A stretch of DNA of 64,000 nt, from the IMG/VR virus record IMGVR_UViG_2671180724_000008; one strand, written 5' to 3'. The notes beneath the pieces are model-generated. The model saw only the letters and a list, made by a program, of their open reading frames with translations. It made no database searches and had not been told where the DNA came from. Below are positions 15,393-62,148 of the stretch, piece by piece. Each line of letters begins with the position of its first letter. Position 1 is the first letter of the stretch. Position numbers and translations under genes: made by a program. Source of the stretch: a virus. Lineage: Duplodnaviria > Heunggongvirae > Uroviricota > Caudoviricetes.

Positions 15393-15455
15393 GCCTGCTT
15401 CCGTATATATAAATAATAAGTAACTTATTAAATATATACAGAAGCAGGTCTTTTA
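15393..15455. repeat. conserved hairpin element, copy A (cctgcttc / gaagcagg stem around an AT-rich loop)
   Basis: 8-bp stem enclosing a roughly 39-nt AT-rich loop, followed by a T-run. A near-identical element recurs at 62088..62148. Confidence 0.5.
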
Positions 15456-15555
15456 AAAGACACCACCAGAACAACTCCCTTCCGTTTCCACTTCCAAAAA
15501 CTGCCACCAGTCGCTATCATCCGCCCATTGTGATAAGTAAGTAACTACCTACCAG

Positions 15556-16305
15556 GTGAGCCACATGAGCCAAATCTTTTTCGACACCATCGACAACGAC
15601 CAGTACGACTTCATGACAGAGTGGAATACCGCTGTTATGGATAAGTGGGTTGCTGAAAACATTGGTTTGTCGCGTTGCAAAGACGAGGCTGAACTCTTCG
15701 ATACGAAGTGGTTTGATTACCGCGACATGCATCCTCTTATGGCCACCTGTCTGTTTACAGAGGCATACAAACGTCAGTACTCAAATATCATGCTGACGCA
15801 CGGTCGAGAACACTTTGAAACAGCTCCGTTCACCACCGGGTTAAAACGCCTGCCTTATCAGGAGTTGTCGACTGCCAATAAAACGTCGCTATGGAAAGCA
15901 CGCCAGTTTGCTGACCGCTATTGCTGCTCATACGACTACTTTATTTCCACCGTTCTTTCCGCAGCTGCACGACGACTGTGGGACAAGCTGCCGCGTCCGC
16001 AGCATTTGTGGCAGCCAGAACTGATTGAGATATTCGAAGATAAATTAGCCAGACGCGCAACAACCCGTCTGGATGACTCTCTGGTTAGCTTTAAGCATAT
16101 GGGAGACATGCAGTTCAACCCGATTCAGGAAAGCTATTTTGAGTGGATTCTGGAGCGTTTACGCGCCATCCCCCGCAGCAAGCGCATACGCGCAATTTTC
16201 TCCGCTATCTGGCTAATGGAAATCGTTCCAGAGCGCCTTATTTCCGCCCACTTTCCAGAAGAACTGGAAGAAGCACGGCGGTTTATTGATCCCCTATCTA
16301 ATTAA
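15556..16305 (+). CDS. hypothetical protein (upstream of replicative helicase)
   Basis: 249-aa ORF, no recognisable motif. Any helicase-loader role is speculation from position only. Confidence 0.45.
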   Translation: MSHMSQIFFDTIDNDQYDFMTEWNTAVMDKWVAENIGLSRCKDEAELFDTKWFDYRDMHPLMATCLFTEAYKRQYSNIMLTHGREHFETAPFTTGLKRLPYQELSTANKTSLWKARQFADRYCCSYDYFISTVLSAAARRLWDKLPRPQHLWQPELIEIFEDKLARRATTRLDDSLVSFKHMGDMQFNPIQESYFEWILERLRAIPRSKRIRAIFSAIWLMEIVPERLISAHFPEELEEARRFIDPLSN

Positions 16306-16348
16306 CTAATACTAGAAAACAATTTGTTTAAAAAACAAAGGAAAGCAC

Positions 16349-17689
16349 ATGACCGAACTTTGCCATACAGGACGCGGGCTGTCCGAAGAGTTTGATGAAG
16401 ATTTCCAGAACAGACTGACGGCATATTTTTGTCGTGATCACGAGTTTCTTACTCGTGCGGGAGATCTGGTTGTGCCTAGCCAATTTGCCAATGCGGCCAA
16501 TGCCATATTGGTTAATATGGTTTCGGGCTATTACCGTATGTACAAGAGCGCGCCCTCTTCATCTGCAATTCTGGATATGCTTAAGCGTGCGAAACGCGAT
16601 AAGACTATCCGTGAGGAACTATTCGCCGATGTTGTTGCTGCGTTTAAGCGCATCCTTGCAGAAAAATTGTCCGATACCTCGTACATGGTTGACCAGGTAT
16701 CAACCTTCGCAAAAAGCGTAGCGTTTGATGATGCTCTGATTAAGGCTGCTGAACTGAAAGAGAAGGGCGACTTTCAGGGGGCGATGGCAATCATGGCCAA
16801 GGTTCAGCAGATTGGATCGAATGAAGCGACCGGAATCTATGACTACTACACCTCCGCAAGTGAGCGATTGAAAGCGCGTGAATATGAGGCTTCAGAGGAG
16901 TATGTACCAAACAGTATTACAACTGGACTCCCTCTTCTCGATAGGTTGCTGTACCAAAAAGGCTGGGCAAAGCGCGAAATGGTGCTCTTCATGGGGTTCG
17001 CTAAATCCGGTAAATCGACCGCAATGGGTGAGTTTTCCATAAACGCAACGCTTGCCGGCTACAATGTTCTGTATCTCTCGCTGGAGGTTCACACCAACAT
17101 TTTGTCCGACCGCTTTGATGCAAGATTGTCGGAGACGGAAATGTCCAAGCTGGTGGAACGGCGCGATGAAGTTCATCGTAAGTTGGCAGAGTTGGGAGCC
17201 ACGAAGGGGATTGGTAGTTTGTGGGTTGTTGAGCGTCCGTCAGGAAGTATGTCACCGGCCGATCTGGACCGTATGCTTAACAGTATGAAAGCCAATGGCA
17301 TGGTGCCTGACATGGTTGTTGTCGACTACGCAGATTTGATGCGTGCCAGTTATGACCTTCGTGATGATCGCGCCAATATTCGTAGTATCTACACCGATTT
17401 ACGTGCTCTTTATGACAAACATAACGTTGCTGGGATCACGGCATCGCAGACAAACCGTGAAGGTGGCGCGTCAGAAGTTGCCACAATGATGCACGCTGCC
17501 GACAACATCGAAAAAGTACGTATTGCTGACCTGGTAATAACGATCAACAAAACCGAAGAAGAAGAAGCGAAAGGAGAGGCTCGTCTCTACTTTGCTGGTT
17601 CGCGTAACCAGCAGGGAGGGATCAGCATTCGCGTTAAACAAAACCTCGAACAAATGCGCTTCATTGAGCGAATCTTAGACGTTACCTAA
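16349..17689 (+). CDS. DnaB-like replicative DNA helicase
   Basis: 446-aa protein with Walker A GFAKSGKST in a RecA-like C-terminal domain. Start preceded by aaaggaaagcacATG. Confidence 0.75.
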   Translation: MTELCHTGRGLSEEFDEDFQNRLTAYFCRDHEFLTRAGDLVVPSQFANAANAILVNMVSGYYRMYKSAPSSSAILDMLKRAKRDKTIREELFADVVAAFKRILAEKLSDTSYMVDQVSTFAKSVAFDDALIKAAELKEKGDFQGAMAIMAKVQQIGSNEATGIYDYYTSASERLKAREYEASEEYVPNSITTGLPLLDRLLYQKGWAKREMVLFMGFAKSGKSTAMGEFSINATLAGYNVLYLSLEVHTNILSDRFDARLSETEMSKLVERRDEVHRKLAELGATKGIGSLWVVERPSGSMSPADLDRMLNSMKANGMVPDMVVVDYADLMRASYDLRDDRANIRSIYTDLRALYDKHNVAGITASQTNREGGASEVATMMHAADNIEKVRIADLVITINKTEEEEAKGEARLYFAGSRNQQGGISIRVKQNLEQMRFIERILDVT

Positions 17690-17770
17690 AAAATAAGCGT
17701 GGAGAACACCTCCACGCTTGATTCATTGGTGAAACAACTTTTCTTTTGCCAAACCACAAAAGAAAAACAC

Positions 17771-18952: not shown

Positions 18953-19027
18953 CAAACGCCGTTAAAATAAGTAGATGATTACTTATCTTTCTGTAAGAAT
19001 ACTTTCATCTGTTAGCTAGGAGTTGGT

Positions 19028-19810: not shown

Positions 19811-19865
19811 TCTCTCCGCGCGTCGTTTTTTACGCAAATAACGATAGGTAAGTACAAGATTATTT

Positions 19866-20348
19866 ATGGCGGTAGTTGTGAAAGCTGATTTGTCAAAAAT
19901 CCCCTCTATTTCAGGAAATAATGGTTATTCACTTCGTTGTGAGGAAGTAAAGATAAACGGTGAGTCGGCATATTGCAGCTACTCCGTTTGCCAGCACACC
20001 ATTCTTGCCTTCAAAGAAAACCGTCTTCCTCGAACTTCATTCCAGTCGTGCGCAACCACTATCAAAGCAGGCAAATGCAAGGCGTTAAAAATGATGGTTG
20101 AAGAGATTCGTAAAGGAGAATCTCTGTATTTCGAAGATATGACCGCGCTCATTAAGGAGGTTGAAGAACGGAATAAACAAGCCAGAACTATAAAACGAAA
20201 ACGTGACAGTGTAACGATTAATAGCATGGTTAAGAAGAGCACCACATCACAAACAGCGATCACTGACGTGTATGCGGCGTTGCTTGAAGAAACAACAAAA
20301 GAAACACATGAGCAAATCGATCAACATATGGAGGCAAAACAACAATGA
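19866..20348 (+). CDS. hypothetical protein (Cys-rich N-terminus)
   Basis: 160-aa ORF; several Cys in the first 70 aa (possible metal-binding). Confidence 0.4.
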   Translation: MAVVVKADLSKIPSISGNNGYSLRCEEVKINGESAYCSYSVCQHTILAFKENRLPRTSFQSCATTIKAGKCKALKMMVEEIRKGESLYFEDMTALIKEVEERNKQARTIKRKRDSVTINSMVKKSTTSQTAITDVYAALLEETTKETHEQIDQHMEAKQQ

Positions 20349-21667
20349 AAAAGTTGATCGCACTTAAGCATAAGCTGGACGAAATGAAAGCTATGGGAAC
20401 CAATGCAAAAAAAGAGGCATTGGCCAACATGGATGACTTCGAGCAAAGCATGGTTTCATTGATGCTCAACCCTTTCATCCGTTTTGGGGTAAAGAAATAC
20501 AAAGTGGCAGAGCCGCTTAGTGAGTCCGTCCCAAGTGACGAAAAAGCCATTGATATACTGAATAAGCTGGCCTCTCGCGAGCTGACGGGGAACGCAGCAA
20601 TAGCTGCTGTTGAGTCTATCGTGGCGTCAATGTGCGCCGATGGGCAGGACGTGTTCCGTCGTTTCCTCTTAAAAGATCCGAAAGCTGGCGTTGGGATTAG
20701 CCTATGCAACAAGGTTTTTGAAAATCCCATTCCGAAATTCGAGGTGCAGCTGGCGTCACCGTATAAAGAAAAAGGCGACAAATACCCCTTCAAGCCAAAT
20801 CCTAAAGCAAAATGGCCGATGATTGGCAGCCTTAAGCTCGATGGTTTGCGAGTAATTTGCGAGGTTATTGTTGACGAGGAAGAGGTGAACTTCCTTTCTC
20901 GTACTGGTAATCCAATCACGTCTCTCGATCACCTAAAGCCAGCCATGCTCGAATTAGGCAAACTTTCAGGCCACAAACACATCTTCTTCGATGGTGAAGG
21001 AACAGCCGGTTCATTTAACAAGTCCGTATCTGCATTGCGCAAAAAGAACGTGCAGGCAATTGGCGCTATTTATCATGTTTTCGACTTCTTCCTACCGGAA
21101 TGGCGGGCACAGGCTAAATCCAAAGAGTATGCAAAGACAGGTATGAAGCTGAAAGAGCGCCTGGCTATTCTCGTGGCGTTGTTCAAAAACGATCGCAGTG
21201 AAGACTACGCGCAAGACATTCACCTACATCCGTTCTACATCATCCATAGCCACGAAGACTTCATCGAACGCTTCATGAAACGCCTGGACGATAACGAAGA
21301 AGGGGAGATGGGCAAAGATCCGAACTCTGTTTACGAGTTTAAACGTACCCGCAGCTGGTGGAAGTTAAAAGACGAAGATTCAGAAGATGGTGAAATTATC
21401 GACTTTGAGCCGGGCGACCCGGACTCTGGTTTTGCCAACACACTTGGAAAAATTGTTATTCGTCTTGAAAACGGCGTCATCGTTCGTGCGAGCGGCATTA
21501 AGCATAAATATCTGGACGAGATCTGGAACAACAAAGAGAAGTACCGTGGTCGTATTGTCGAGGTTCATTGTCACGAGAAAACACCGGACGGCAGCTTACG
21601 CCACCCACGACTGAAATGGCCGCGTTGCTTACGCGATACAGAAGATCGAATCGGAGATAAAGAATGA
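20345..21667 (+). CDS. ATP-dependent DNA ligase
   Basis: 440-aa ORF with nucleotidyltransferase motif I KLDGLR (GSLKLDGLRV). Confidence 0.65.
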   Translation: MKKLIALKHKLDEMKAMGTNAKKEALANMDDFEQSMVSLMLNPFIRFGVKKYKVAEPLSESVPSDEKAIDILNKLASRELTGNAAIAAVESIVASMCADGQDVFRRFLLKDPKAGVGISLCNKVFENPIPKFEVQLASPYKEKGDKYPFKPNPKAKWPMIGSLKLDGLRVICEVIVDEEEVNFLSRTGNPITSLDHLKPAMLELGKLSGHKHIFFDGEGTAGSFNKSVSALRKKNVQAIGAIYHVFDFFLPEWRAQAKSKEYAKTGMKLKERLAILVALFKNDRSEDYAQDIHLHPFYIIHSHEDFIERFMKRLDDNEEGEMGKDPNSVYEFKRTRSWWKLKDEDSEDGEIIDFEPGDPDSGFANTLGKIVIRLENGVIVRASGIKHKYLDEIWNNKEKYRGRIVEVHCHEKTPDGSLRHPRLKWPRCLRDTEDRIGDKE

Positions 21668-22478: not shown

Positions 22479-23256
22479 AAACATATTGATAAGTATTTAC
22501 TTACTTATCTTTTGTGTATAAGATGACTTTGTTTTCGTTGAGACGCGACTGTTTGAACTTAAATACAAGTGCAAACGAAGAAGTCTATCTGGCAGTAGCC
22601 TAATAAGCCAAACACCAGCGAGGTCAGTTTCCAGCCTCGTTACCGAAATGGGACACACTGAGCGAGTGTGATTGCAGAACGCAGGAGGGAACATTCATGT
22701 TCCCTCCGATGAAGTAACAGAATGGGCGGTTGGTATATTTTCAACTCCATATGACTCCCGGATTCTTAGCCACTGACCGCCCATCCTGTTACGTCATTTT
22801 GTTCAATTATGTCGTTTATACTGGGTTAAAAAGCGGCGACGTAGCCCGGCTGGTATGGTTAGCCAGCACACAACGTTGAGGCCATTACATTTTTATCAAT
22901 TCTAAGGTTCTATTCACAGAGATACCGGCGAGCGTTGATATGTAACATGTTGGGCAAACATTCAATCGGAGTAGTGGCCTCAACGTTGTGAAGACGGGAT
23001 TGTTGTGTAGGTTTAACCACTGTTGCCATTGGTGCCTGTTTTCACAACAAATGATTCCATACATCACATTGTATAAATTACAAAGTAGGTGCTGTCCTCA
23101 GAAACATCATCTACTTAAAGATTTTGCCTTCTACTATTGAGCGAAGTCGAAAGCGTCTGGCACTAACGAAAAGTGCAAGTAGCGGTGCGTTTCCTGGCAG
23201 AAACTAAACCGTCGCGATTGGCACTGTTGAGTAATAAATACTGGCAGTGCTGAATT

Positions 23257-23331: not shown

Positions 23332-23336
23332 ATTTA

Positions 23337-23427: not shown

Positions 23428-23503
23428 GCCGGTTTAGCTCAGTTGGTAGAGCGCCTGCCTTGTAAGCAGGATGTCAGCGGTTCGTGTCCGTTAACCGGCA
23501 CCA
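23428..23503 (+). tRNA. tRNA-Thr (anticodon TGT)
   Basis: Acceptor gccggtt / aaccggc, D-arm gctcagttggtagagc, anticodon loop ctTGTaa, T-loop ttcgtgt, encoded CCA. Confidence 0.75.
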
Positions 23504-24171
23504 ACATAATATTGAGAACATTGGCGTAACGGGGTCATATCCCAATCTATGAATAAATGTTACGTTGCCGCGTGACAACCAGTGTTCTCAACATTGTGGT
23601 GAATGCACAGGCTGATGTGCCGCAACTACAGTAGTGCGCGCTTTGCGGGGCTTGCTACAACCCTGTGTCGGAGATCAGCGCCGACCATCACAATTTGGCT
23701 CTCTTGCAACAGCATAACGCTGAAATATGTCCAACCTGGTGCGGCCTGTTCACCCGCCGTTAGCTCCACGAAACGGAGCGCACAACAGATAAGAGAACTT
23801 CCCATATGGGGCTTGGCTTAAATGCATCGAGTTCTCTTATCGCTGTGTCACAGACAAATTTCCGACAGCCCTGTTTATCATCGGACGCAACCTAAAAGGT
23901 CGAGGCAAAGCCAGGTAATAGCGGAGGGAGTGACACAGCACACAACAGGTAAGAGCATTTGTAGAGTTCGACTCTCTACCGTGGGCTTTTTCCCGCGATG
24001 CGAGCCATAAATGCTCTTTCCGTTGTGGTGGATTCGCAGACTGATGCGATAGCTTTCTTGGATGTTAGGGAAATGCGGCCGCAAATCTTCCCTTTCGCGA
24101 GCGGTGATCGTCCGTAGTCCTAATTGGCTGCACCGTATGCCGGAGATTCAGTACCGGCCACCACAACGGCC

Positions 24172-24260: not shown

Positions 24261-24338
24261 CACAGCGTTGAGCGGTTTGGCCTTTTAATCAACTCGATTA
24301 AGACTCCGCTAACATAAACCAGACCGCTCAACGCTGTG
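24261..24338. repeat. long imperfect inverted repeat immediately after the tRNA cluster
   Basis: 20-bp arms (19/20 match): cacagcgttgagcggtttgg and ccagaccgctcaacgctgtg, separated by a 42-nt loop. Confidence 0.6.
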
Positions 24339-25788: not shown

Positions 25789-25848
25789 ATATTATATAAA
25801 TCTCGTTATGATTTACAGACATGTATACGTATTGCTAATTATCACCAA

Positions 25849-25880
25849 CAAATGATAGGTGTGTACATATCTATCATTTG
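25849..25880. promoter_or_regulatory. palindromic operator-like site in a divergent intergenic region
   Basis: Perfect 10-bp inverted repeat caaatgatag ... ctatcatttg with a 12-nt spacer, between the minus-strand membrane-protein gene and the glutaredoxin gene. Confidence 0.45.
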
Positions 25881-25930
25881 TTGTAAAATTAATGTATACG
25901 CTATGAATACACTAATAATATGAGGTAATC

Positions 25931-26206: not shown

Positions 26207-26386
26207 CCCACCAAACTCACTCCCGTTTCCCTTAAAATTCAAAAAACAACGTCAAAATGATTCCATACCTACTATGTATGGAATCATTCGTGAAAATGAG
26301 TTACTTTTACTCTTGATCCTATAAGAATCTATGCCTAATATACTGTTTACTTATACAGTGAATCGGCGTAACTCGGTGATTGTCAT

Positions 26387-27490
26387 ATGAAAAATAGCTT
26401 TGACAGAGCACGCGCTGCGGAGAACACCTCAAAAGAGGCGATTGAGTATCTCGAAAGAGCATCTCAAATGCAGGCCGTTATGATCTCGCAGGTTAGCAAT
26501 GACATGAGATTCTCGGACGCATTCATGTTATTCACTCGCTTATCTCTGCTTATAACCAGACGTCGGCCAGAGATCGCTGTTCATTGTATTTTGATACATG
26601 TTTTGCCGCACATTGCTGATGTAAAAGTAAGTGACATTAATAGGTTCATGGTGAACCAACTGGTAAACCCACTAATACTGGATGGCAAAATTGTTATGGG
26701 CCGCCGCGTTTTCTCTCTGATGAAGCAGTTCCTTAGCTGGTGCGCCTTCCAGGGGATGATAGACGTGTCACCGTTAAACGATATGTCACTAAACAAAGTT
26801 GCCGGTGGCGCAAAGCCCACACCTCGCGAGCGGAAGCTGACCGACGCAGAGGTATGGGTGTTCTGGAATATATGGGACTACTTCAATGTGTGCGCTGGTA
26901 CAAAATGGGCGGCCAGGCTGTGTCTTGTATCAGCAAGACGACCTGACGAAGTACTGCGGGCTAAAAAAAGTGAGTTCAATCTTAAGCGTGGGGTTTGGAA
27001 TCAAGGCAAGAGAAACAAGTCAGCACGTGAGCATTCGCTGCCTTTAAGCACATTAATGCGCACATGCATTGAAGAGTTGTTCGAATACGGTAAAGACAGC
27101 CAGTGGCTCGTGCCTTCGAATAAAAAAATCGGGAAAGACCTTCCTATGTCTAAAGTGGCAATAGCCCAGGCATTACGTCGTATTCTGGAACGACCAGAAC
27201 TGATGGAGCTTGAGCCATTTACACCCCGAGATTTGCGCCGTACTGCGCGTAGTTACTTCCCAGCATTAGGCATAAGCCAGGAGGTATCACGCAAAATCAT
27301 GAACCACAGTCTTGAGGGGATAGATCGGGTCTACGACCGGCACGATTATATGGACGAGATGCGAGACGCCTTAGAAAGTTTCTCGACGTACATCGCATCA
27401 ATCGTAGAGCAACCGGATTTAGACGAAATTGACCACAAATTCAAGGGAGATCGTCTATCAACAGAGCTTATTCGTGTAAATTTTTCATAG
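26387..27490 (+). CDS. tyrosine-type site-specific recombinase (integrase / resolvase family)
   Basis: 367-aa ORF. C-terminal catalytic region carries R..DLRRTARS ... HS ... YDRHDY, consistent with the R-H-R-Y tyrosine recombinase signature. Confidence 0.7.
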   Translation: MKNSFDRARAAENTSKEAIEYLERASQMQAVMISQVSNDMRFSDAFMLFTRLSLLITRRRPEIAVHCILIHVLPHIADVKVSDINRFMVNQLVNPLILDGKIVMGRRVFSLMKQFLSWCAFQGMIDVSPLNDMSLNKVAGGAKPTPRERKLTDAEVWVFWNIWDYFNVCAGTKWAARLCLVSARRPDEVLRAKKSEFNLKRGVWNQGKRNKSAREHSLPLSTLMRTCIEELFEYGKDSQWLVPSNKKIGKDLPMSKVAIAQALRRILERPELMELEPFTPRDLRRTARSYFPALGISQEVSRKIMNHSLEGIDRVYDRHDYMDEMRDALESFSTYIASIVEQPDLDEIDHKFKGDRLSTELIRVNFS

Positions 27491-36246: not shown

Positions 36247-37269
36247 ATGTCTAAGACATTACTTGATTTGCTTAACAAAACTCGTGAAGACATTGCCGCC
36301 AAACGTGGCAAAAACACTGATTTGACCCGCTTAAAAGACGGCATCAACTATATCCGCATCTTCCCTAATAAAGACGACCCGAATGGTAAGTTCTTCCAGA
36401 CTTTTGGTATGCACTACATTAAGTATCAGAACGAGGAAGGTAAAGAAGCAACCAATGCTTATATTTGTGAGCAACATACTCACGGTCGCGCTTGTCAGCT
36501 ATGCGAAATGGTGATGGAAGGTCGCGCTCGTCACAAGGGTAACAAAGCAATGGAAGAGCGCATCGGTCAAATGCGTGCAACCCCTCGCTACCTGGTAAAC
36601 GGCATTCTTTCAACTCGTGAGGATTTCTCCGATGCAGAGAAATGTCAGTTAATCGAACTGCCTTCCACTGTGTTCGATGATATCTGCAAAGCAATCACCG
36701 AAGACATCGCTGACGATATCGGCAATCCATTAAGCAAAGAGGAAGGTTACGCATTTCAAATTAAGCGCACAGGCTCTGGTCGCGATACAGAATATGACGT
36801 TTCACCAAAACGTAAAGTCTTCAAAGGTGATATCGAAGATAAATTCTGGAACAACCAACATGACCTGATTGCTTATGTGAATCAGGCCGATGAAACTCGC
36901 CTTCTTGCGACAGTTCGCACTATGGGTCGTCTGATTGGCATCGCTGCACCAACTGCCACTGCATCGGCACCAGCAATTTCCTCAACAGCGAAAACATCGG
37001 CCTCTGCACTGCCTGGATTTGGCTCGATCACTGGTCATACGGAAGGAGCGACGGCTGTAGCAACCGCCCACACTCCAGCTTCTGAACCAACCAGTCTGGT
37101 TGATGAAGAAGTCCTGCGAGCAATGGAATCTGAATTTAAATCAGAAACAAGTTCTGCTGCCACATCAGCCAAAGAGTCTGAAGCAGACGCAACGACATCT
37201 GTAGCAGCCGCATCTGCGGCGGAAGATGAAGGTATTGATGACCTGCTGAAAGAACTGGAGTCTCTGTAA
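36247..37269 (+). CDS. single-stranded DNA-binding protein (T4 gp32-like) with acidic C-terminal tail
   Basis: 340-aa ORF. N-terminal region aligns by eye with gp32 (INYIRIFPNKDDPNGKFF versus gp32 AVIRFLPSKNDEQAPF) and carries a Cys/His cluster CEQHTHGRACQLC. Acidic C-terminus EDEGIDDLLKELESL. Confidence 0.6.
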   Translation: MSKTLLDLLNKTREDIAAKRGKNTDLTRLKDGINYIRIFPNKDDPNGKFFQTFGMHYIKYQNEEGKEATNAYICEQHTHGRACQLCEMVMEGRARHKGNKAMEERIGQMRATPRYLVNGILSTREDFSDAEKCQLIELPSTVFDDICKAITEDIADDIGNPLSKEEGYAFQIKRTGSGRDTEYDVSPKRKVFKGDIEDKFWNNQHDLIAYVNQADETRLLATVRTMGRLIGIAAPTATASAPAISSTAKTSASALPGFGSITGHTEGATAVATAHTPASEPTSLVDEEVLRAMESEFKSETSSAATSAKESEADATTSVAAASAAEDEGIDDLLKELESL

Positions 37270-45022: not shown

Positions 45023-46116
45023 CAAAGCAGTTTGAGACTATTGGAAAGGATCTCAATCATCTTGATATTTTCAGGCGTCAAATTCTGCGAAAGTTCGGTT
45101 ATCTTGTTGATAATGTTCTGTTTAGCATCAATTTCCCCGGCTTTCTCATCTGGTTTTTTGGGTTCGATGTCTTCAGGTTTTGGCGGTGCGACTTTAAGTT
45201 TTGGATTACGGCTGTGAATCTGGATATAGATCGACCGCCCTCGCTTAATCTCGCTGTATTCGAGATAGCCCAAATCTTGGAGAGCTTTTAAGCCGTTACG
45301 TATAGTCTGATTCTGCGAGCTGACATTCCTGCTACTCAAATTGAGTCGCGCACGCAATCGAGCAAGCGATACCGGCGCAGGCTTGGTTGGAAGACTTTCG
45401 ATGAAGGTGTACAGAGCCTGTGCTGTTTCTTTGCGTGGTAGCTTATTGATAACCTTTAACTGCAAAAGAACCTTATGGTCAAAGCGATATAGTTCGGCCA
45501 GCTTCGGTTCTGCATAGAACACCACCGTATCTTTCTGCTCGTTGTAGTCCACGCTATTGATGAGGTGCACCATCAGAAGCGAGATCTTGTTAGAGCCGTC
45601 GACGTTCTTTTCTTCATACGTTCTCTGGAAAGACAGAGTTGTACGCATGATCTTCAAAAGACTGTTTGTAAGCCGGTCGCGGAGTGTTTTGCGGATCTGT
45701 GACGATGGATAGCCACAAAACTTCGCAAATTTCGTGATGCTTAACTCGACACGACCGTTAGGTTCGCCGTATTCTGCCAGCGAACGCACAACGCCCACCC
45801 ACGTTTTGAAATCATGATCCATGTCGAGACGAGGACCGGTTATCTTGATGTCGGAATAGCCTTCAGAACGGGCTACTTCGAGCTGAACAAGCTCCTTTGA
45901 AGCATCGATTTCATTTGGCTTGTTACGCTTGCTGTATTTTGTCCCCTTGAGCGTGGGCACGAACAACCCCAGCCGCATCAACGCAATTGGTTGGACTGTA
46001 TTGTTGCTATTAGGGACAAGTTCCCCTGTGTACAATTCAAGGGAACCTTCTTCAAAGTTGTCGAGATTATCTTCTACTTCTTTGTTATTTTTACCTTTTT
46101 TATTTTTTGTGGACAT
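45022..46116 (-). CDS. repA: RepA-like iteron-binding plasmid replication initiator
   Basis: Minus-strand ORF flanked on both sides by iterons. Start set at MSTKNKKGKNNK (ATG at 46116-46114) so that the coding region does not overlap the upstream iterons; the track start is 46236. Confidence 0.7.
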   Translation of the reverse strand: MSTKNKKGKNNKEVEDNLDNFEEGSLELYTGELVPNSNNTVQPIALMRLGLFVPTLKGTKYSKRNKPNEIDASKELVQLEVARSEGYSDIKITGPRLDMDHDFKTWVGVVRSLAEYGEPNGRVELSITKFAKFCGYPSSQIRKTLRDRLTNSLLKIMRTTLSFQRTYEEKNVDGSNKISLLMVHLINSVDYNEQKDTVVFYAEPKLAELYRFDHKVLLQLKVINKLPRKETAQALYTFIESLPTKPAPVSLARLRARLNLSSRNVSSQNQTIRNGLKALQDLGYLEYSEIKRGRSIYIQIHSRNPKLKVAPPKPEDIEPKKPDEKAGEIDAKQNIINKITELSQNLTPENIKMIEILSNSLKLL

Positions 46117-47336: not shown

Positions 47337-48422
47337 ATGACTTTGCCATACGGCGTCATTTCTGACTGCCACTACCACAAATGGGATGCGTTCTCCACGA
47401 CGAACGCTGAGGGGCTTAACTCCAGACTTGAAATACAGTTGGAAGCAACGAAAGAAGCAGCCATCGCCATGAAGAAGGCCGGTTGTAAGTACATGTTGGT
47501 TGCCGGTGATACATTTCACGTCCGAGGAACTGTGTCCCCTTCTGTTTTGCATTACGTAACTGAAACGTACAAGTGGATTATCAACGAGCTTGATCTGACA
47601 GTAGTAATGCTGGCCGGTAATCACGATCTTGAAACCAACGATTCAGTATATAGCGCCAACGCAGCAGCATCGCTGAGTTCTATCGGCGTGGTAATCGTAT
47701 GTGGCAAGCGCCCACACTCAATAAAAATTGGTGATGTGACTGTCCACCTGATTAGCTGGCGTAACAATCATGCGGAGCTTATCAGCGATCTGAAAGCATT
47801 ACGTAAGAGCGTAGAAGGTGATAATCATGACGTTGTTATCCATACATCCATTAACAAAGCCATTCCAACAATGCCTGACGTCGGTATCGATGCGCAGGAG
47901 TTAAAGGATATCGGCTTTCGTCTCGTGCTTAGTGGGCATTACCACAACCACAAAGAGGTCATTCCTGGTGTTATCAGTGTCGGTGCGCTGACCCATCAAA
48001 ATTGGGGAGATGTTGGATCTCTGGCTGGTTACATGATCGTAAACCCGGACGGCAGTTTCAGTCACTACGAAACCAGTGCGCCTAAATTCATTAACCTGGA
48101 AGATTATGTTGCCGATGACCAAATTCGCGGCAACTACGTGCGTTTCCGCGCCGTAATTGAGAACGATGAAGAAGGCATTAAGTACCAGAATATCCTCAAA
48201 ACAATGGGCGCAAAAGGTGTCGTGTGCAACTTCATCCGTAAGTCATCAATGATGGAAGGGACAGCAAGCACAACGGAAACCAGCAAAATCGATAGCTTGG
48301 GAGAGTCGGTATCTGCTTATTGCAAGATTGTCCACGATACTGACGGCGGATTTGATCTGAGCAAGTTGGATATTTTGTGTCAGGAAATCCTCACCGAAGC
48401 GGAGAGTTCGGAGGCTGTGTGA
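47337..48422 (+). CDS. SbcD/Mre11-like nuclease (calcineurin-like phosphoesterase)
   Basis: 361-aa ORF with phosphoesterase motifs DCHYH, GDTFH and GNHD. Start context acaaaggaaaaacacATG. Confidence 0.65.
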   Translation: MTLPYGVISDCHYHKWDAFSTTNAEGLNSRLEIQLEATKEAAIAMKKAGCKYMLVAGDTFHVRGTVSPSVLHYVTETYKWIINELDLTVVMLAGNHDLETNDSVYSANAAASLSSIGVVIVCGKRPHSIKIGDVTVHLISWRNNHAELISDLKALRKSVEGDNHDVVIHTSINKAIPTMPDVGIDAQELKDIGFRLVLSGHYHNHKEVIPGVISVGALTHQNWGDVGSLAGYMIVNPDGSFSHYETSAPKFINLEDYVADDQIRGNYVRFRAVIENDEEGIKYQNILKTMGAKGVVCNFIRKSSMMEGTASTTETSKIDSLGESVSAYCKIVHDTDGGFDLSKLDILCQEILTEAESSEAV

Positions 48423-48651: not shown

Positions 48652-50568
48652 ATGAAGTTTTTAAAGCTCCAGGTTGAGAATTTTATGGCTATCGCCAGCG
48701 CGGAGGTCGAGTTAGATCAGCGTGGTTTAGTGCTAATTCAGGGCGTTAATAGTGATGATAGTTCCGCATCAAGTAATGGCTCTGGAAAGTCAACTCTAAT
48801 GAATAGCCTGATGTGGTGTCTTTATGGCGAAACAGCTCATGGTGTGAAGGGTGACGATGTGTTGTCTACCGACCATGAAAAGAACTGTCGTGTTGCAGTA
48901 ACCATCGAGGATGAAGGCAAGAGATATGCGATCATTCGTCACCGTAAACACAAAGAGTTCAAAAATCGTCTTATCGTTCGTGGTGAAGATGGCGATATGA
49001 CGAAAGGCAAAGATGCGCTGACGCAGGAGTTCGTCGAGCGTCTGATCGGTGCATCTAAAGAGGTTTTCATGGCTTCCATCTATGCGAGCCAAGAAGCTAT
49101 GCCAGATTTACCTGGAATGTCCGACAAAAACCTCAAAACCATCGTAGAAGAAGCCGCTGGCGTTGACAGACTGACACGCGCCTACGCTATTGCTCGTGAG
49201 CGAGCTAATGCAGCTGCCGCACGTATGGATGTGGTTAAAACCAAATTGGAGTCGACAATCTCGACCATTGAGGCAACACAGTCAGAAATTGAGTCCGCGA
49301 AAGCCTCCTCTGAATCATGGGAACAAGAGCGTTCTAAACGTTATGACGATGCCTTGGCTGGGCTGGCAAGTGCCGAAGTTGAGTTAACGGAAGTTGAACT
49401 TGAGATCCGCACTCTTCCCGAACAGATCCGTGATACCGAGAAGGCAATCGAAAGTGAGCGCAAAAAGTTAGCCTCAAAAGAAGAACATGACGCCAAGTTG
49501 CTCAAAGTGCGTGGTGCGATAACTGATATTCGGGCAAGCATCAAAGCTACAGAAAATAGTCAGGCTGATGCAATGAGCCGCGCGCGCAATTTTAAGACTA
49601 AAGCAGAAGAGGTTGGTACTAAAGTGGGATCGCCATGCCCTACTTGTGGCAAAGCCTACTGCGAAGAAGATCTATCAACGGTGAAGGAGAATTTCATTGA
49701 ACAAGCACGTCAGGAAATTGGTCAGGCGAAGACACTTGCAGAGGCAATGGCTAAACACAAAACGAATCTTGAGAAAGCGTTAAGCATTGAGTCTGCCCTT
49801 GTTAAAACGACACCTGATGTAACGGCTATCATTGCACGGATTGAAGAGCTTACTAAACAACTCTCATCTTTGCGTCATCGTGAGAAGGAGGTTGTTGCTA
49901 TTGAGTCTCTTGTTACTCGTGCTCGTGCAGAGGTAGATCGTATCTCAAAAGAGGTTAATCCGTTTATTGCACTTATCGCCAGACACGAAGATAACCTGGC
50001 ATCCAGTAAGTCTACCTTCAAGTCCTTAAAAGATGAGTTGAAGGCTATTCAGGAACAAACGTTGCTATTGGAAAAAGCTCGTCAGGTCTACTCTCCTGCC
50101 GGGGTGCGTTCTCATATTTTGACGTCTGTTACGCCTTTCCTGAATACACGTACAGCTGAGTATCTCAATACGTTGTCTGACGGGAATATTACTGCTGAGT
50201 GGTCGACGATGGATGTCACTAAAAAAGGTGAGTATCGCGACAAATTCAACATTAGTGTGCAGAAGAAAGGTTCAAGTAAGTCGTTCCAGACCCTCTCTGG
50301 TGGTGAGAAGCGGAAGGTTCGCATTGCGTGTTCTTTGGCATTGCAGGATCTGGTTAGTAACCGGGCGAGTAAAAACATCGATTTGTTTATCGGCGACGAA
50401 ATTGACGATGCACTCGATACAGCCGGTCTTGAACGCCTCATGGGTATTCTGGAGTCCAAAGCTCGCGAGCGAGGTACTGTGCTGATTATCTCCCATAAAG
50501 AGATGAAGTCATGGTTCCGGGAAACTATTACGCTGGAAGTTAAAGAGGGGCGCAGCTATGTCGTTTAA
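48652..50568 (+). CDS. SbcC/Rad50-like ATPase
   Basis: 638-aa ORF. N-terminal Walker A NGSGKST, central coiled coil with CPTCGK zinc hook, C-terminal signature LSGGEKRK and Walker B LFIGDEID. Confidence 0.65.
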   Translation: MKFLKLQVENFMAIASAEVELDQRGLVLIQGVNSDDSSASSNGSGKSTLMNSLMWCLYGETAHGVKGDDVLSTDHEKNCRVAVTIEDEGKRYAIIRHRKHKEFKNRLIVRGEDGDMTKGKDALTQEFVERLIGASKEVFMASIYASQEAMPDLPGMSDKNLKTIVEEAAGVDRLTRAYAIARERANAAAARMDVVKTKLESTISTIEATQSEIESAKASSESWEQERSKRYDDALAGLASAEVELTEVELEIRTLPEQIRDTEKAIESERKKLASKEEHDAKLLKVRGAITDIRASIKATENSQADAMSRARNFKTKAEEVGTKVGSPCPTCGKAYCEEDLSTVKENFIEQARQEIGQAKTLAEAMAKHKTNLEKALSIESALVKTTPDVTAIIARIEELTKQLSSLRHREKEVVAIESLVTRARAEVDRISKEVNPFIALIARHEDNLASSKSTFKSLKDELKAIQEQTLLLEKARQVYSPAGVRSHILTSVTPFLNTRTAEYLNTLSDGNITAEWSTMDVTKKGEYRDKFNISVQKKGSSKSFQTLSGGEKRKVRIACSLALQDLVSNRASKNIDLFIGDEIDDALDTAGLERLMGILESKARERGTVLIISHKEMKSWFRETITLEVKEGRSYVV

Positions 50569-51310: not shown

Positions 51311-51880
51311 ATGAGTAAAAAAATCAGCGTAGTTGGTGTTGATCCCTCAATGAGCAACTTTGGGCTTGCTGTGGGCACTTTAGACCTTGAAACGGACGAA
51401 CTTGAGATTCACGGCCTTACTCTTGTTGAGACTAAAGCGGGGAGTAACAAAAAGACAGTTCGTGTGAACAGTGACGATCTGCGCCGTGCCAGTGAAATAT
51501 GGCGTGTTGCGAAGCCAATCATTGATAAGGCAAATATGGTTTTTTGTGAGCTACCGGTTGGGAGCCAAAACTCTCGTTCGCAGACGTCTTACGGTATTTG
51601 TATCGGTGTACTTGCGTGTGTGGATAAGCCATTGATCCAGGTCACTCCAAACGAAATTAAGCATTTTGTCGGCAATAAACTTACTACATCGAAAGAAGAG
51701 ATTATCCAGTGGGCTACGAAAAAACACCCTAAAGCACCGTGGCTGCGTCGTAAGCAATCTGGACAGGATGTTCTCGTGAACAAAAACGAACATTTGGCTG
51801 ATGCGGTGGCTGCCATCCATACCGGTATGCAAACGGATCAGTTCCGCCAGGTGCGCGATGTTCTTAAGTCTCTCATTTGA
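51311..51880 (+). CDS. RuvC-like Holliday junction resolvase (putative)
   Basis: 189-aa ORF. N-terminal ISVVGVDPS resembles the RuvC/YqgF catalytic Asp motif. RBS aaggag upstream. Confidence 0.5.
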   Translation: MSKKISVVGVDPSMSNFGLAVGTLDLETDELEIHGLTLVETKAGSNKKTVRVNSDDLRRASEIWRVAKPIIDKANMVFCELPVGSQNSRSQTSYGICIGVLACVDKPLIQVTPNEIKHFVGNKLTTSKEEIIQWATKKHPKAPWLRRKQSGQDVLVNKNEHLADAVAAIHTGMQTDQFRQVRDVLKSLI

Positions 51881-55517: not shown

Positions 55518-55594
55518 ACCGATACAAAGCATTATGTGGCCTGGCAACGCTGGGCCACAATGGATCACAAGAATTAAGAAGGAACAAAACTAGC

Positions 55595-56464: not shown

Positions 56465-56533
56465 TTGTAGGTAGTTATCTATCTGTGTATATTGCATTGG
56501 CGCGTTAAATTTCTGAAACAACTATTCGTTTTT

Positions 56534-56558
56534 GGTGGCCTATGGCCACCATTTTTTT
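56534..56558 (+). terminator. rho-independent terminator
   Basis: ggtggcc-tat-ggccacc hairpin followed by attttttt. Confidence 0.75.
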
Positions 56559-56635
56559 ATCTATCTGGTCTTGTTCGCTCAATAAATGTAAACTCACATA
56601 ATGAATAAGTAGTTACTTATCTTTGTGAGGTTTTT

Positions 56636-57739: not shown

Positions 57740-57740
57740 T

Positions 57741-59271: not shown

Positions 59272-59332
59272 AAATTGTTCGCCTCTTCTACATTGCGACA
59301 ATAAAACTCTCAAAATGGGTTAAGGATAAAAA

Positions 59333-59752
59333 ATGTTTAGTGAAATGTTGCTTGAAGATGAACTGGATCGGAAAACAACAGAGGCTTTGATTCGTGTGGC
59401 GGACGAACATTCTCGGTCGTTTATGAGCGATCGAGAGGCTCGTCTGGCTATTCGTGCCATATTCGAAACTGCGCAAGGGCTTGTTGGCGCACAAGTAGGT
59501 GAAGCCATTAACATCGCCATGTCTCAGTTCAGTGAAGGCAGTAAAAAGCCTCTGTTTCCTATGCATTTGATGCTGGCTGGTGGCACGGTGCTTTATATCT
59601 CTGTTTGTCTGGATAGCAACCAAATCAATATTCTCAACACTGCGTCAGGTAAGTGGAAAGATCCGATTGTCTGTGAAACCAGTGAAGAAACTTTGAAAAA
59701 AGCGGCTCAATTTGTACGTAGCGCACTACTTAAGGGCGCTAAGAAGTTGTAA
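59333..59752 (+). CDS. hypothetical protein
   Basis: 139-aa ORF with RBS aaggat upstream. Confidence 0.4.
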   Translation: MFSEMLLEDELDRKTTEALIRVADEHSRSFMSDREARLAIRAIFETAQGLVGAQVGEAINIAMSQFSEGSKKPLFPMHLMLAGGTVLYISVCLDSNQINILNTASGKWKDPIVCETSEETLKKAAQFVRSALLKGAKKL

Positions 59753-59761
59753 GGAGTTCTG

Positions 59762-60319
59762 ATGACAACGATTGTTGCAGGCATCGATATCGAGTCTACG
59801 GGACTGGATTTCCTTGCTGGTCATAAAATTATTGAAATCGCAATTACCCGCTATGAACTGGAGACACAGAGACATATTGATAGTCTGGAGATGCGTTTTA
59901 ACCCTCGCAGAAACATAGATCCGAAAGCTCAAGCCGTTCATGGCATTTCATTGGAACAGCTCGCAGCTGAACCTTTGTTGTCAAATCATGCCAGCGAAAT
60001 TGGCGCTTATATGGGGGCATGTAGTGCGTGGATTGCTCATAACGGCGAAGCGTTTGATATACCATTTATTCGGCACGAGTTTTCAGGGTATGGAGTAAGA
60101 CTGCCAGACGTTCCTGTTATAGATACTATGTTATCGGGATTGTGGGCCACAGAAGACGGTAAACGCCCCCGCCTTGAAGAGTTGGCCTTCTCTCTTGGCT
60201 TTATATACGATCATGCCAAAGCACATAGTGCCTTATATGACACAAACTTAATGATGCAATGCTTCTTTAAGGCACGTAATAAGTACGGATTTTTTAAATT
60301 ACCCTCTGAAATTGTGTAA
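59762..60319 (+). CDS. DnaQ-like 3'-5' exonuclease (DEDDh family)
   Basis: 185-aa ORF with Exo I GIDIESTGL, Exo II AHNGEAFDIPF and Exo III H..LYDT motifs. Confidence 0.7.
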   Translation: MTTIVAGIDIESTGLDFLAGHKIIEIAITRYELETQRHIDSLEMRFNPRRNIDPKAQAVHGISLEQLAAEPLLSNHASEIGAYMGACSAWIAHNGEAFDIPFIRHEFSGYGVRLPDVPVIDTMLSGLWATEDGKRPRLEELAFSLGFIYDHAKAHSALYDTNLMMQCFFKARNKYGFFKLPSEIV

Positions 60320-60323
60320 AACA

Positions 60324-60361
60324 AAAGCCTACTTTAAAAAGTTTAAAGTAGGCTTTCTTTT
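60324..60361 (+). terminator. rho-independent terminator
   Basis: 15-bp perfect inverted repeat aaagcctactttaaa / tttaaagtaggcttt with a 3-nt loop, followed by ctttt. Confidence 0.75.
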
Positions 60362-60477
60362 AAAGAACAGTCGCCTTTCAATCATTTCCTGCCTGTATTT
60401 AATACTTTTCCGCCTGATAGGTTTAGTCAAAATGTAGCCATCGAAACGCAAATGTAACCAAACAGAAGGAGACTTAC

Positions 60478-61287
60478 ATGAGTTCGGTTGAAAATGTAAT
60501 GACAAATGATGATCTGGACGAGCTGACAGCCATGTTGCAATCACTTGATGAACCAGTAAAAAAAGCTGCACAGGTTGAAAATACTGATGATATTGACGAT
60601 CTGCTGCTCGGCCTCGATGCTGGCGTAGCCATGAGTTCTGATGATGTTGCCGAAGAACTGTTCAATGAAGAAAAAGCAGGTGATTTCAGCTCTGCTTTAA
60701 ATGAGTTGGAGTTAGCGCATGAGCCTATAAACGTAATTAACGCTGAAAGTGGTGAAGCTGCCGAAAATGAGCCAGAACAGTTGGGGATCATTGAGGTTGA
60801 AGAGTGTGTTGAGGTTAATGATGAATTAAAAGTTCAACAGTCAAATGATAGCAATACAAATAAAAAAACTCGTGCTGCAAGAGGTCCTCGTTTTACTTTA
60901 AGTGATAAAGATGATTCGTTTTTCAATAAAGCAGGCTTAGAAAAAGATATTTTCTTAGACGCTTACGAAAACGCGCCTGTCAAAGCGAAGGATAAGATAT
61001 TAAACCTTCTTAATTGGTTTAGCGGAGGTCCAGATATTAGTGTTTACACGGTAATTTCCATGAGACACCTTCTTACAGAAAAGAAGGCTACAAGTAATAG
61101 TATTAAGATTGCTTTAATGAGCAATCCAGAAAAACCGTATCCGCTTAACACTGCGTCAACTCAGGCTGGGCAAATGATGGCTGTATTTCCAGCTACAGGA
61201 ATTGCCGTTAGAGACGGTGGAAATCTAACATTGAACGAAGAATCACCGATCGTTAAGAAGTTTGTCGCGGAGTACACTATTGGATGA
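60478..61287 (+). CDS. acidic hypothetical protein
   Basis: 269-aa ORF with RBS aaggag upstream; Asp/Glu-rich N-terminal half. Confidence 0.4.
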   Translation: MSSVENVMTNDDLDELTAMLQSLDEPVKKAAQVENTDDIDDLLLGLDAGVAMSSDDVAEELFNEEKAGDFSSALNELELAHEPINVINAESGEAAENEPEQLGIIEVEECVEVNDELKVQQSNDSNTNKKTRAARGPRFTLSDKDDSFFNKAGLEKDIFLDAYENAPVKAKDKILNLLNWFSGGPDISVYTVISMRHLLTEKKATSNSIKIALMSNPEKPYPLNTASTQAGQMMAVFPATGIAVRDGGNLTLNEESPIVKKFVAEYTIG

Positions 61288-61364
61288 CGTTCCCCTACTG
61301 AAAATAAAGCCCATAGAGAGCTTTATAGTGCTGGGTAAGCTAATCACATACCCAGCACCATAAA

Positions 61365-61410
61365 AACGCGCCAGAGAGCTTCTTGTTCGCATTTCTGGCG
61401 CGTTTTATTT
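61365..61410 (+). terminator. rho-independent terminator
   Basis: aacgcgccaga / tctggcgcgtt 11-bp stem followed by ttatttgatt; a second hairpin gtgctgggt / acccagcac lies just upstream. Confidence 0.7.
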
Positions 61411-61470
61411 GATTGCCATACATAAAATCAAATGCAAAAATAGGTAATCACTTACCTATCGAGAAAGAAG

Positions 61471-62064
61471 ATGATTGCAGCCGAAAAAATCAAACAGCGA
61501 AAGCGCGACAACTCTCTTCGTGACCTCTGGAGAACACCTGATTGGCTGTTTTCTGCCATTCAACGTTATCTTGGAGTGACATTTGATGTTGACGTTGCCT
61601 GCAACAAGGACAATGCAAAGCTGCCTAATTTCATAGGCATTGAGCGTGATGCTTTGAAATCTGAATGGGGACAGCCAGGTACAATTGCCTTCCTCAATCC
61701 ACCCTACTCCAAAATCTCCCCCTGGATTGATGCGGCTATACGTGAGCAGGCTCGCGGAGTTACAACAGTGATGCTAATTCCTCAATCCCTCGATACAAAG
61801 TGGTATGAGCGTGCAACAGAGTATGCGAATGAGACGATTATTCTGTCTGGTGGCCGCGTAGCGTTTGTCGAGCCTGACGTCAATTTGGGTCAGGTAGAAG
61901 TAAACATCAACCCCGGTGGCAGTATGCTCGTTGTTTTTCGAGGATTCTGTCAGGACGCTGGGCACTCTATAAGCAAGATCCCTTTGGACGTCATGAAAAG
62001 TCTGGGAGGGTATGATCCTGCGAATGTGGTCAGGAAAAAAAGACCATCAAAGAAGGCTGCTTAG
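61471..62064 (+). CDS. phage-type DNA N6-adenine methyltransferase (Dam-like)
   Basis: 197-aa ORF with catalytic NPPY motif (AFLNPPYS); small size is typical of the phage Dam family. Confidence 0.6.
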   Translation: MIAAEKIKQRKRDNSLRDLWRTPDWLFSAIQRYLGVTFDVDVACNKDNAKLPNFIGIERDALKSEWGQPGTIAFLNPPYSKISPWIDAAIREQARGVTTVMLIPQSLDTKWYERATEYANETIILSGGRVAFVEPDVNLGQVEVNINPGGSMLVVFRGFCQDAGHSISKIPLDVMKSLGGYDPANVVRKKRPSKKAA

Positions 62065-62087
62065 TTTGTTCTGGCGAGTGTAATTAA

Positions 62088-62148
62088 CCTGCTTCTGTAA
62101 ATAAATAACTACATATTAATTATTAATATACGGAAGCAGGCTGTTTTG
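62088..62148. repeat. conserved hairpin element, copy B (cctgcttc / gaagcagg stem around an AT-rich loop)
   Basis: Same 8-bp stem and similar AT-rich loop (gtaaataaataa...) as copy A at 15393..15455, followed by ctgttttg. Confidence 0.5.

Follow-up and report, generated by a model that had tools for sequence, protein, structure and literature searches.

The 64,000-nucleotide (nt) stretch of viral DNA analyzed here (IMG/VR record IMGVR_UViG_2671180724_000008; the window) represents, judging by its sequence, an SSU5/pHCM2/pMT1-like phage-plasmid. It carries two copies, A and B, of a hairpin element that is specific to the SSU5-like family, is present three times per genome and is built of a GC-rich base and an AU-rich upper stem. 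The copies lie at the boundaries of gene modules and are tentatively interpreted as terminator or insulator hairpins that act on the transcript. A first-pass annotation, made from the letters of the window alone, had placed two hairpins at 15393..15455 and 62088..62148 and regarded them as copies of the same element. Both hairpins are found there, and their common identity is borne out by identical arms of 12 + 12 nt, flanking boxes, a single covariance model that fits both, and intermediate forms and concerted evolution in relatives. The parts of the two copies are as follows.

15394..15448, + strand: core of copy A, an imperfect palindrome of 55 base pairs (bp) composed of CCTGCTTCCGTA, a 31-nt AT-rich and largely self-paired interior, and TACAGAAGCAGG
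15449..15457, + strand: T-rich tail of copy A, TCTTTTAAA, which is also the first half of a small palindrome, GTCTTTTAAAAGAC
15366..15371, + strand: outer box TTCTGG of copy A, which pairs in the extended fold with CCAGAA at 15466-15471
15466..15471, + strand: outer box CCAGAA of copy A, part of an AGAC..CCAGAMC motif found downstream of all three copies
62088..62140, + strand: core of copy B, a 53-bp imperfect palindrome composed of CCTGCTTCTGTA, a 29-nt AT-rich interior, and TACGGAAGCAGG
62141..62149, + strand: T-rich tail of copy B, CTGTTTTGT
62070..62074, + strand: outer box TCTGG of copy B, which pairs with the CCCAGACC region in the extended fold
62160..62167, + strand: outer box CCCAGACC, downstream of copy B

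The arms common to A and B are CCTGCTTCYGTA and TACRGAAGCAGG. The stem cctgcttc / gaagcagg that had been noticed initially is present, and the arms are longer than it, at 12 nt each. The pattern CCTGCTTC-N25-55-GAAGCAGG matches the window exactly twice (15394-15448 and 62088-62140) and matches none of 100 dinucleotide-preserving shuffles. A covariance model of 59 family members scores copy A at 85.8 bits (E = 3e-13) and copy B at 63.2 bits (E = 5e-9). No further copy was detected in the window with a mismatch-tolerant regular expression, an inverted-repeat search or the covariance model, whose next best hit has E = 0.59. The predicted folds have energies of -26.2 kcal/mol for A (z = -7.1 relative to shuffles) and -19.8 kcal/mol for B (z = -4.8), and the basal 8–12 bp of both are GC-rich, giving the stable hairpin characteristic of intrinsic terminators. 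Position 9 forms a C.A mismatch on the + strand in copy A, which is a minority variant in the family, and a U.G wobble on the + strand in copy B.

The AT-rich centre had been described as a loop of ~39 nt with a conserved sequence, neither of which holds. It is mostly paired, the predicted hairpins of A and B being ~22–26 bp long with an apical loop of 3–5 nt. Over 72 distinct members, pairing within the interiors is stronger than in shuffles of matched composition (mean z of -2.3 for A, -2.2 for B and -3.5 for C, the third copy presented below). The interiors of A and B are both AT-rich and have TAAATAA in common on their 5' side; their similarity does not exceed composition-matched chance (z = 0.9, p = 0.24), while that between the interiors of A and C is significant (z = 4.7). 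The relatedness of A and B is thus recognized from arms, flanks and family context. The view that a conserved loop makes the element unlike a plain terminator was consequently abandoned, the interiors being mostly stem and not significantly similar. The trailing T-runs are present after both copies and are short in the window (TCTTTT after A, CTGTTTT after B). Outside the core, similarity extends to TCTGG ~20 nt upstream and to AGAC..CCAGA(C) 10–27 nt downstream, which brings the palindrome to ~100 bp. The upstream outer box of A is seen in about half of the site-A upstream contexts.

The DNA around both elements is ~98% identical to that of Escherichia phage PhiR41_1, CMS-2020a and Cyrano, ~80% identical to that of Salmonella phage SSU5 and ~78% identical to that of several Klebsiella phages (megablast). 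The window corresponds to PhiR41_1 from 61.5 kilobases (kb), across the record end, to 15.3 kb, so that ~46 kb of the 108-kb genome lie outside. The genome-wide search for more copies recommended in the first-pass annotation found the third one, copy C, in that outer part (PhiR41_1 45583-45635), between a gene coding 88 amino acids (aa) and the small terminase gene. Copy C forms the inner part of a ~100-nt hairpin (-51 kcal/mol, z = -8.8), the outer stem of which, GGTCTGGG/CCCAGACC, shows compensatory changes. At every copy the end of the hairpin is separated from the next start codon by 109–118 nt.

Copy A: hairpin ends at 15448, ATG at 15565 (116 nt between)
Copy B: hairpin ends at 62140, ATG at 62250
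Copy C: hairpin ends at 45635, ATG at 45754 (PhiR41_1 coordinates)

Note that a motif, CAGAAAACA, is nearly invariant ~45–55 nt past copy C in 36 distinct site-C sequences (e.g., L004 ~45682-45692) and is better conserved than the sequence surrounding it; a late promoter or a terminase recognition site may include it.

The check for conservation in relatives, also recommended at the outset, showed the element at the same three syntenic sites. In IMG/VR, a scan for the exact pattern returned at least 120 stretches and, among the matches listed, all but one lie at these sites. To avoid the bias of a search based on the element itself, loci were also fetched through the neighbouring proteins, with the following results.

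Site A, through the downstream 246-aa protein: element in 58 of the 58 distinct upstream regions that reach it
Site B, through the upstream Dam methyltransferase: element at all loci whose methyltransferase is at least 73% identical
Site C, through the downstream small terminase: element at all readable loci

Chance resemblance, or a coincidence of unrelated terminators, is ruled out by the absence of matches in shuffles, the covariance-model E values and the three conserved syntenic sites. Among 5,426 complete Escherichia coli genomes, 255 (~5%) carry the element, in 390 places and one to three per genome; every one of these places is on a plasmid, none is chromosomal and none is annotated. 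In 185,579 species-representative genomes, true members were found only on SSU5/pMT1-like replicons of Enterobacterales (Kluyvera, Buttiauxella, Yersinia pestis) and on one Bacillota-labelled contig from a metagenome-assembled genome, which is probably a mis-binned phage-plasmid; outside SSU5-like replicons this set yielded only chance matches. No Rfam family matches the element at gathering thresholds, and at E values up to 10 only generic long-hairpin models appear. No description of it was found in the papers searched on SSU5, Cyrano, pHCM2, pMT1 and phage-plasmids, and it seems to be a conserved, so far undescribed example of a fairly ordinary kind of signal. Several IMG/VR contigs start inside the element or 30–240 nt from it (L180 and L193 at site A; L008, L032, L038, L055 and L060), and a 55-bp repeat in three copies is a probable cause of breaks in the short-read assembly of these plasmids.

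The pattern of variation suggests that the element is maintained by selection. Arm positions 1–3, 7 and 10–12 are invariant and positions 4, 5, 6, 8 and 9 are variable, and the arms together with the 5' interior motif GTATATATAAATAA vary less than the flanking coding DNA (75–80% identical). Three double compensatory changes are found in the basal stem, namely C5-G to U-A (L253), U6-A to G-C (L294) and C8-G to U-A (Klebsiella site B), and single-change intermediates of the compensatory pairs are present. Selection on the element is deduced from this combination of conservation above that of neighbouring genes and pairing kept by compensatory change. In relatives whose methyltransferase is only 61–64% identical, site B retains the same design with different, mutually complementary arms: one diverged pair is GCCTTGCTCCCATA, ~50 AT-rich nt and TATGGGAGCAAGGC, and another is GCCGTGTTCCCATA...TATCGGAGCACGGC. 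In L330, the deeply diverged arm has no second occurrence on the contig, and a search for plasmid relatives of L330 found none.

The copies within a genome evolve in concert. In three genomes, A and C do not differ at any of the 55 positions, and the lineage of contig ..2880329822 carries in A, B and C a private interior, TATATTAAATAATAAATMAC, that was not encountered at these sites in other lineages. A single arm change at one site of a genome is not accompanied by the same change at the others; Klebsiella site B, for example, has CCTGCTTTCGTA/TACGAAAGCAGG in a contig whose site A has the standard arm. Gene conversion between paralogous copies explains how arms can be shared without a trans-acting factor, and concerted evolution likewise explains why three terminators would have one stem.

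Of the earlier suggestions for the role of the repeat, a boundary between modules is the best supported, the copies lying between gene blocks and a breakpoint being found at A. In the genomes that were mapped fully, the three copies separate maintenance/cargo, replication and nucleotide-metabolism, accessory, and structural blocks. Homology of the window with Cyrano, SSU5 and one CMS-2020a record sets in at the left edge of A (15384-15394, megablast). Among the relatives sampled, ~20 unrelated left flanks adjoin A or its outer TCTGG box, with conserved DNA to the right, and the cargo slot left of A is occupied by other genes in Cyrano and SSU5. On the evidence of these alignments, copy A marks a recombination or homology breakpoint. 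The genomes are mosaic for the types of A, B and C; contig ..154997, for instance, combines an SSU5-type A with E. coli-type B and C. Genes relevant to the slot left of A have been treated as autonomous transcription units (bioRxiv 10.1101/2022.10.28.514194), which fits a need for insulation at this place.

The genes next to the two copies in the window, and a candidate promoter, are listed below.

14515..15282, - strand: GIY-YIG (LEM-3-like) gene (Pfam PF22945, E = 5.6e-7), in the variable cargo slot left of copy A
15492..15520, + strand: candidate sigma-70 promoter identified by eye (TTCCAA, 17-nt spacer, TATCAT) for the operon of the 246-aa protein, DnaB-like helicase and primase
15565..16305, + strand: gene for the conserved 246-aa protein, the first to the right of copy A; no Pfam match
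16349-17689: DnaB-like helicase gene, next after the gene for the 246-aa protein
61471..62064, + strand: Dam-type N6-adenine methyltransferase gene (PF05869, E = 5e-38), whose stop codon is 24 nt before copy B
62250..62480, + strand: open reading frame (ORF) of 76 aa, which begins 109 nt past copy B and opens the block with RNase HI
63009-63653: RNase HI gene, in the block begun by the 76-aa ORF

In the terminator or insulator reading, transcription of the + strand would lead to formation of the hairpin in the RNA, and at A and B the hairpin with its U-rich tail would act as a factor-independent terminator. Termination would insulate the downstream operon from read-through out of the preceding block. 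The protected unit would be, at A, the operon for the 246-aa protein, the DnaB-like helicase and the primase and, at B, the block that includes RNase HI. The own promoter of each downstream operon would be located in the 109–118 nt between hairpin and ATG. For copy C, which has no U-tract, the probable role is weak termination, pausing, or RNA processing and stabilization. The near-identical copies also recombine with one another by gene conversion and provide junctions for the exchange of modules and cargo genes between phage-plasmids.

Placement and tails are consistent with this reading, and the earlier label "terminator-like" fits A and B. Copies B and C follow a gene on the same strand, B 24 nt past the methyltransferase stop codon and C right after a stop codon, and A follows a + strand gene in Cyrano and SSU5. 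The 9 nt after the hairpin contain on average 5.5 T at site A (46 distinct sequences), whatever the upstream context, and 5.1 T at site B (38 distinct sequences). Because the A tail persists across ~20 unrelated upstream contexts, it is not kept merely as part of a palindrome. In the Klebsiella pneumoniae clade, a canonical intrinsic terminator (AGAGATTCAGGCAC-loop-GTGCCTTAATCTCT followed by TTTTT) replaces the element at site B, another lies just upstream of a degraded copy at site A, and a weak long hairpin is kept at site C only. Plasmid NZ_CP032196.1 provides an example (L411 ~20330-20500, L412 ~20340-20660 and L413 ~5985-6160, minus strand). The element has in common with the intrinsic terminators of enterobacteria and their phages a GC-rich base, a T-rich run at A and B, an intergenic position just past a stop codon (at B and C, and at A in Cyrano and SSU5), and the presence of a canonical terminator at the same sites in a related clade.

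The candidate promoter begins 44 nt after A and has a counterpart at the same place in SSU5 (TTCCAA, 17-nt spacer, TATGAT). A consensus scan does not call it, its -35 hexamer matching at 3 of 6 positions only, and no clear equivalent was found after copy B. Note that Klebsiella phage ST13-OXA48phi12.3 has four CCAGAC(C) boxes after site B, before the next gene (L126 2296-2360), spaced by about one to two helical turns, and that the window has two there (62160-62167 and CTCAGAC near 62197-62203). These boxes may form a binding array for a regulator.

Several observations weigh against termination as the function of the element. On the gene strand, copy C is not followed by a U-tract (2.9 T in 9 nt), yet it is the best conserved and the most strongly folded of the three. 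The stems of 22–26 bp, with their long A-U upper part, are far longer than those of canonical terminators (stem of 5–14 bp, loop of 3–8 nt), the T-run has only 4–6 T, and a consensus terminator scan calls neither A nor B. Unlike ordinary intrinsic terminators, the three copies also have one stem sequence and evolve in concert. The formal covariation signal is weak, as 89.3% of cells pair compared with 88.5% in shuffles, a result attributed to arms so conserved that little variation is left. Tests of strand asymmetry disagree. G.U-type variants are in total on the side of the + strand (47 versus 15 cells), and the + strand gives the more stable fold for site-A cores and extended site-C sequences. 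The minus strand folds better at site B and, in the window, slightly better for both copies. This asymmetry (sense at A and C, antisense at B) was not used as evidence for a role in RNA or in DNA. In the window, A is not immediately preceded by the end of a + strand gene, its left neighbour being on the opposite strand. A half-element (..ATTAAATA..TATAGGAGCCAGGC) is conserved at each of the three sites in the Klebsiella pneumoniae clade, where A and B also have the canonical terminators, and this hints at a sequence-specific role beyond termination; in predicted folds, the box of this half-element pairs with downstream sequence. Finally, no transcript 3'-end mapping data were found for any SSU5-like element.

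Repeated regulatory cassettes that mediate modular shuffling are known from lambdoid phages as boundary sequences. The promoter-early stem-loop (PeSL) cassettes of T4-type phages described by Arbiol, Comeau and Krisch in 2010 are reportedly also repeated and mediate modular shuffling. The element resembles both in having a stem-loop and a candidate promoter at the edges of exchangeable blocks, homology breakpoints at the element and ectopic recombination between copies. It differs from PeSL in number and setting (three copies at major junctions versus dozens around single small ORFs), in its unrelated sequence and in having a downstream promoter that is only a candidate. In its working, the element would come closest to an intrinsic terminator joined with a phage module-boundary cassette. 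It lacks features expected of a terminator of canonical size, of a nut or put site, and of a miniature inverted-repeat transposable element (MITE). Lambda nut and HK022 put lie behind a fixed promoter within an operon leader and have conserved boxA/boxB or a twin stem-loop; in contrast to them, there is no Rfam match and no conserved upstream promoter at A, where the 5' sequences of relatives are unrelated right up to the element. The same two absences leave the suggestion of a free-standing small structured RNA without support.

An alternative that retains an action in RNA is that the element serves processing or stability of the transcript. Its AU-rich duplex of 22–26 bp (~45 bp, interrupted, at C) would be a substrate of the host RNase III or a similar enzyme, whose cleavage would cut polycistronic transcripts at module junctions and leave stabilizing 3' hairpins, as in T7 early mRNA. 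RNase III requires ~20 bp of near-continuous double-stranded RNA. The paired length at A and B exceeds this requirement, as does the ~100-nt hairpin of C, and the upper stem is all A-U. Processing would also account for copy C, which without a U-tract has the longest hairpin and lies between co-oriented genes, and the sole weak Rfam similarities are to models of long-hairpin precursors, a likeness of shape only. The long, largely A-U hairpins between polycistronic genes, C above all, recall the RNase III sites of T7 early mRNA and lambda sib; the T7 sites have a characteristic internal loop, and A and B differ from them by their terminator-like tails. This explanation is considered unlikely, as it accounts neither for the conserved T-tails at A and B nor for the canonical terminator at the Klebsiella clade sites, the asymmetry at B does not point toward the transcript strand, and the substrate is a predicted one.

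The palindrome might instead function at the DNA level, through extrusion of a hairpin or cruciform or through recognition of the duplex, which is likewise improbable. Copy C would then be, or overlap, the start or end of packaging (cos or pac), or the three copies would be programmed break or entry sites or unwinding elements. The machinery invoked is the T4-like recombination-dependent replication of the phage, with an SbcCD-like nuclease, a RuvC-like resolvase, gp32 and UvsX/Y/W-like proteins. The linear GenBank records of SSU5 (NC_018843; L417 1-20, L418 2260-2300) and Cyrano (OV696614; L414 1-20, L416 28340-28379) open within the apical part of C, between ..ACTTATTA and AATATATACGGAAGCAGG.., 133 nt before the small terminase gene. 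Such an opening point is odd for an arbitrary cut and counts against the terminator reading. It could be a real virion end or an artefact of assembly or convention; the Cyrano coordinates probably follow those of SSU5, which reduces the two records to one independent observation. A GC clamp around an AT-rich centre, as found here, is the design that extrudes most easily, SbcD/SbcC-like and gp32-like proteins are encoded, to which the Cyrano record adds RuvC, UvsY, UvsW and a RecA-like protein, copy A stands at the head of the replication module, and mixed strand asymmetry is what a duplex or cruciform role predicts. The position of C just upstream of the small terminase gene, with partial symmetry, is also that of lambda cosN.

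Other data are difficult to reconcile with such a role. Palindromes known to be cleaved by SbcCD in vivo are longer-armed than the element, and neither the T-tails nor the canonical terminator in Klebsiella are explained. Three cos sites 30–46 kb apart would lead to sub-genomic packaging. The large terminase is of the Terminase_6 (T4-like) type, not of the lambda GpA type, and the architecture of 12-bp arms ~30 bp apart differs from that of cosN and of the N15 centromeres. Copy C is internal in 27 of the 27 IMG/VR contigs with an E. coli-clade C flank, although these are mostly plasmid-form assemblies with little bearing on virion ends. A broader conjecture, held to be less probable still, takes the three palindromes for hairpin- or cruciform-forming DNA signals of the lytic programme, at which breaks made or used by the T4-like machinery, its SbcCD/gp46-47-like nuclease included, would switch the circular plasmid from theta replication to recombination-dependent synthesis of concatemers, with C, where the SSU5 record opens, as the packaging cut site. 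If true, it would mean a programmed use of palindromes to linearize a plasmid prophage.

Quite improbable, in turn, is that the element is the binding site of a phage-encoded protein, whether an operator for a repressor or activator of the three operons, a dispersed centromere like that of N15, or a promoter in the AT-rich interior. A dimeric protein would account for the palindrome, and the nearly invariant TATAAATA resembles a T4 late promoter. The 12-nt arms and GTATATATAAATAA surpass flanking coding DNA in conservation, all copies stand at a fixed 109–118 nt before an operon, CCAGAC boxes repeat downstream, and the Klebsiella pneumoniae clade keeps one half-site at the three positions, the partner arm missing at A and B. 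The genome codes for ParA and two ParB_N-domain proteins, and N15 offers a precedent for several copies of a palindrome scattered around a phage-plasmid genome. The changes in the arms argue against this proposal, being compensatory within a site and unshared among the sites of one genome, the opposite of what a co-evolving protein predicts. The half-sites are ~43 bp apart from centre to centre, unlike known operators or parS, whose architecture differs from arms ~30 bp apart. A consensus scan finds no sigma-70 promoter within the element, and the curated Cyrano record has no annotated sigma factor, RNA polymerase or antiterminator; the idea that TATAAATA is a T4-late-like promoter read with a phage sigma factor was dropped on that account. 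CCAGAM boxes are not clustered elsewhere in the genome, and CCAGAC as a genome-wide operator was rejected, the box being enriched in L004 (43 versus 17.6 expected) but having no intergenic clusters beyond the three sites.

Least probable is a relic of a MITE-type mobile palindrome, Correia- or ERIC-like, left by three ancestral insertions and having little or no function of its own: the small size, intergenic location, terminal inverted repeats (the 12-nt arms), AT-rich interior and near-identical copies would suit it, as would the imperfect palindromy and the RNA hairpins by which ERIC/IRU and Correia repeats affect termination or stability, and known MITEs can double as terminators or RNase III sites, but the element is neither dispersed nor polymorphic, being limited to three copies at constant syntenic sites, no target-site duplication is visible at its edges, and conservation above neighbouring genes with compensatory pairing speaks for selection. 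A widespread mobile element was ruled out by the restriction of true members to SSU5/pMT1-like replicons, bar the one Bacillota-labelled contig, and by the plasmid location of all E. coli places.

The rest of the window provides the context of these copies. Its content is, in order, tail genes, lysis genes, parA, replication, recombination and nucleotide-metabolism genes, and the RNase HI region. The GIY-YIG gene, noted at first as the neighbour of copy A, has its domain confirmed; it is divergent from the replication operon and is a neighbour of the element, not a part of it, this adjacency being incidental since relatives hold other genes there. The 246-aa protein is at least 86% identical in 80 loci of the family and has no Pfam match; it may act in helicase loading or in origin binding. 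A gp32-like single-strand binding protein (Pfam gp32, E = 6e-65) and SbcD/SbcC-like nuclease subunits are encoded at 36247-37269, 47337-48422 and 48652-50568. The 189-aa ORF at 51311-51880, named RuvC in Cyrano, has no Pfam match. Together with the genes named UvsY, UvsW and RecA-like in Cyrano, they constitute, as far as sequence similarity tells, a T4-style recombination set in a plasmid prophage.

Further inverted repeats occur in the window. A perfect 14-bp repeat at 14466-14500 (TCATGCATTGGCGC, 7-nt spacer, GCGCCAATGCATGA), positioned 4 nt past the operon of parA and a 119-aa protein and between convergent genes, may serve for termination in both directions or as the site of partition by this ParA system. 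The tRNA gene region contains three long inverted repeats (22709-22797, 23502-23601 and 24261-24338) with arms of 20–23 nt and spacers of 38–54 nt, one beginning at the end of tRNA-Thr and one just past tRNA-Ser; their sequence is unrelated to the hairpin element. The integrase gene (26387-27490) is preceded by two near-perfect palindromes, at 25846-25883 and 26256-26288, which may represent an operator or else a site for a recombinase or for multimer resolution.

Phage-plasmids of the SSU5/pHCM2/pMT1 type are common among Enterobacterales, and a plasmid of Yersinia pestis and carriers of resistance genes belong to this group. The element provides a conserved three-copy landmark in these genomes that delimits the maintenance/cargo, replication, accessory and structural blocks. 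It is a handle for defining transcription units and for predicting sites of cargo exchange, as illustrated by the ~20 occupants of the slot left of A, and it may account for assembly breaks in short-read data. Even as an ordinary terminator and nothing more, it would merit inclusion in annotation pipelines and in Rfam-type libraries. If it acts on DNA, in packaging or in recombination-dependent replication, it would be relevant to the switch of a plasmid prophage to the lytic mode of replication.

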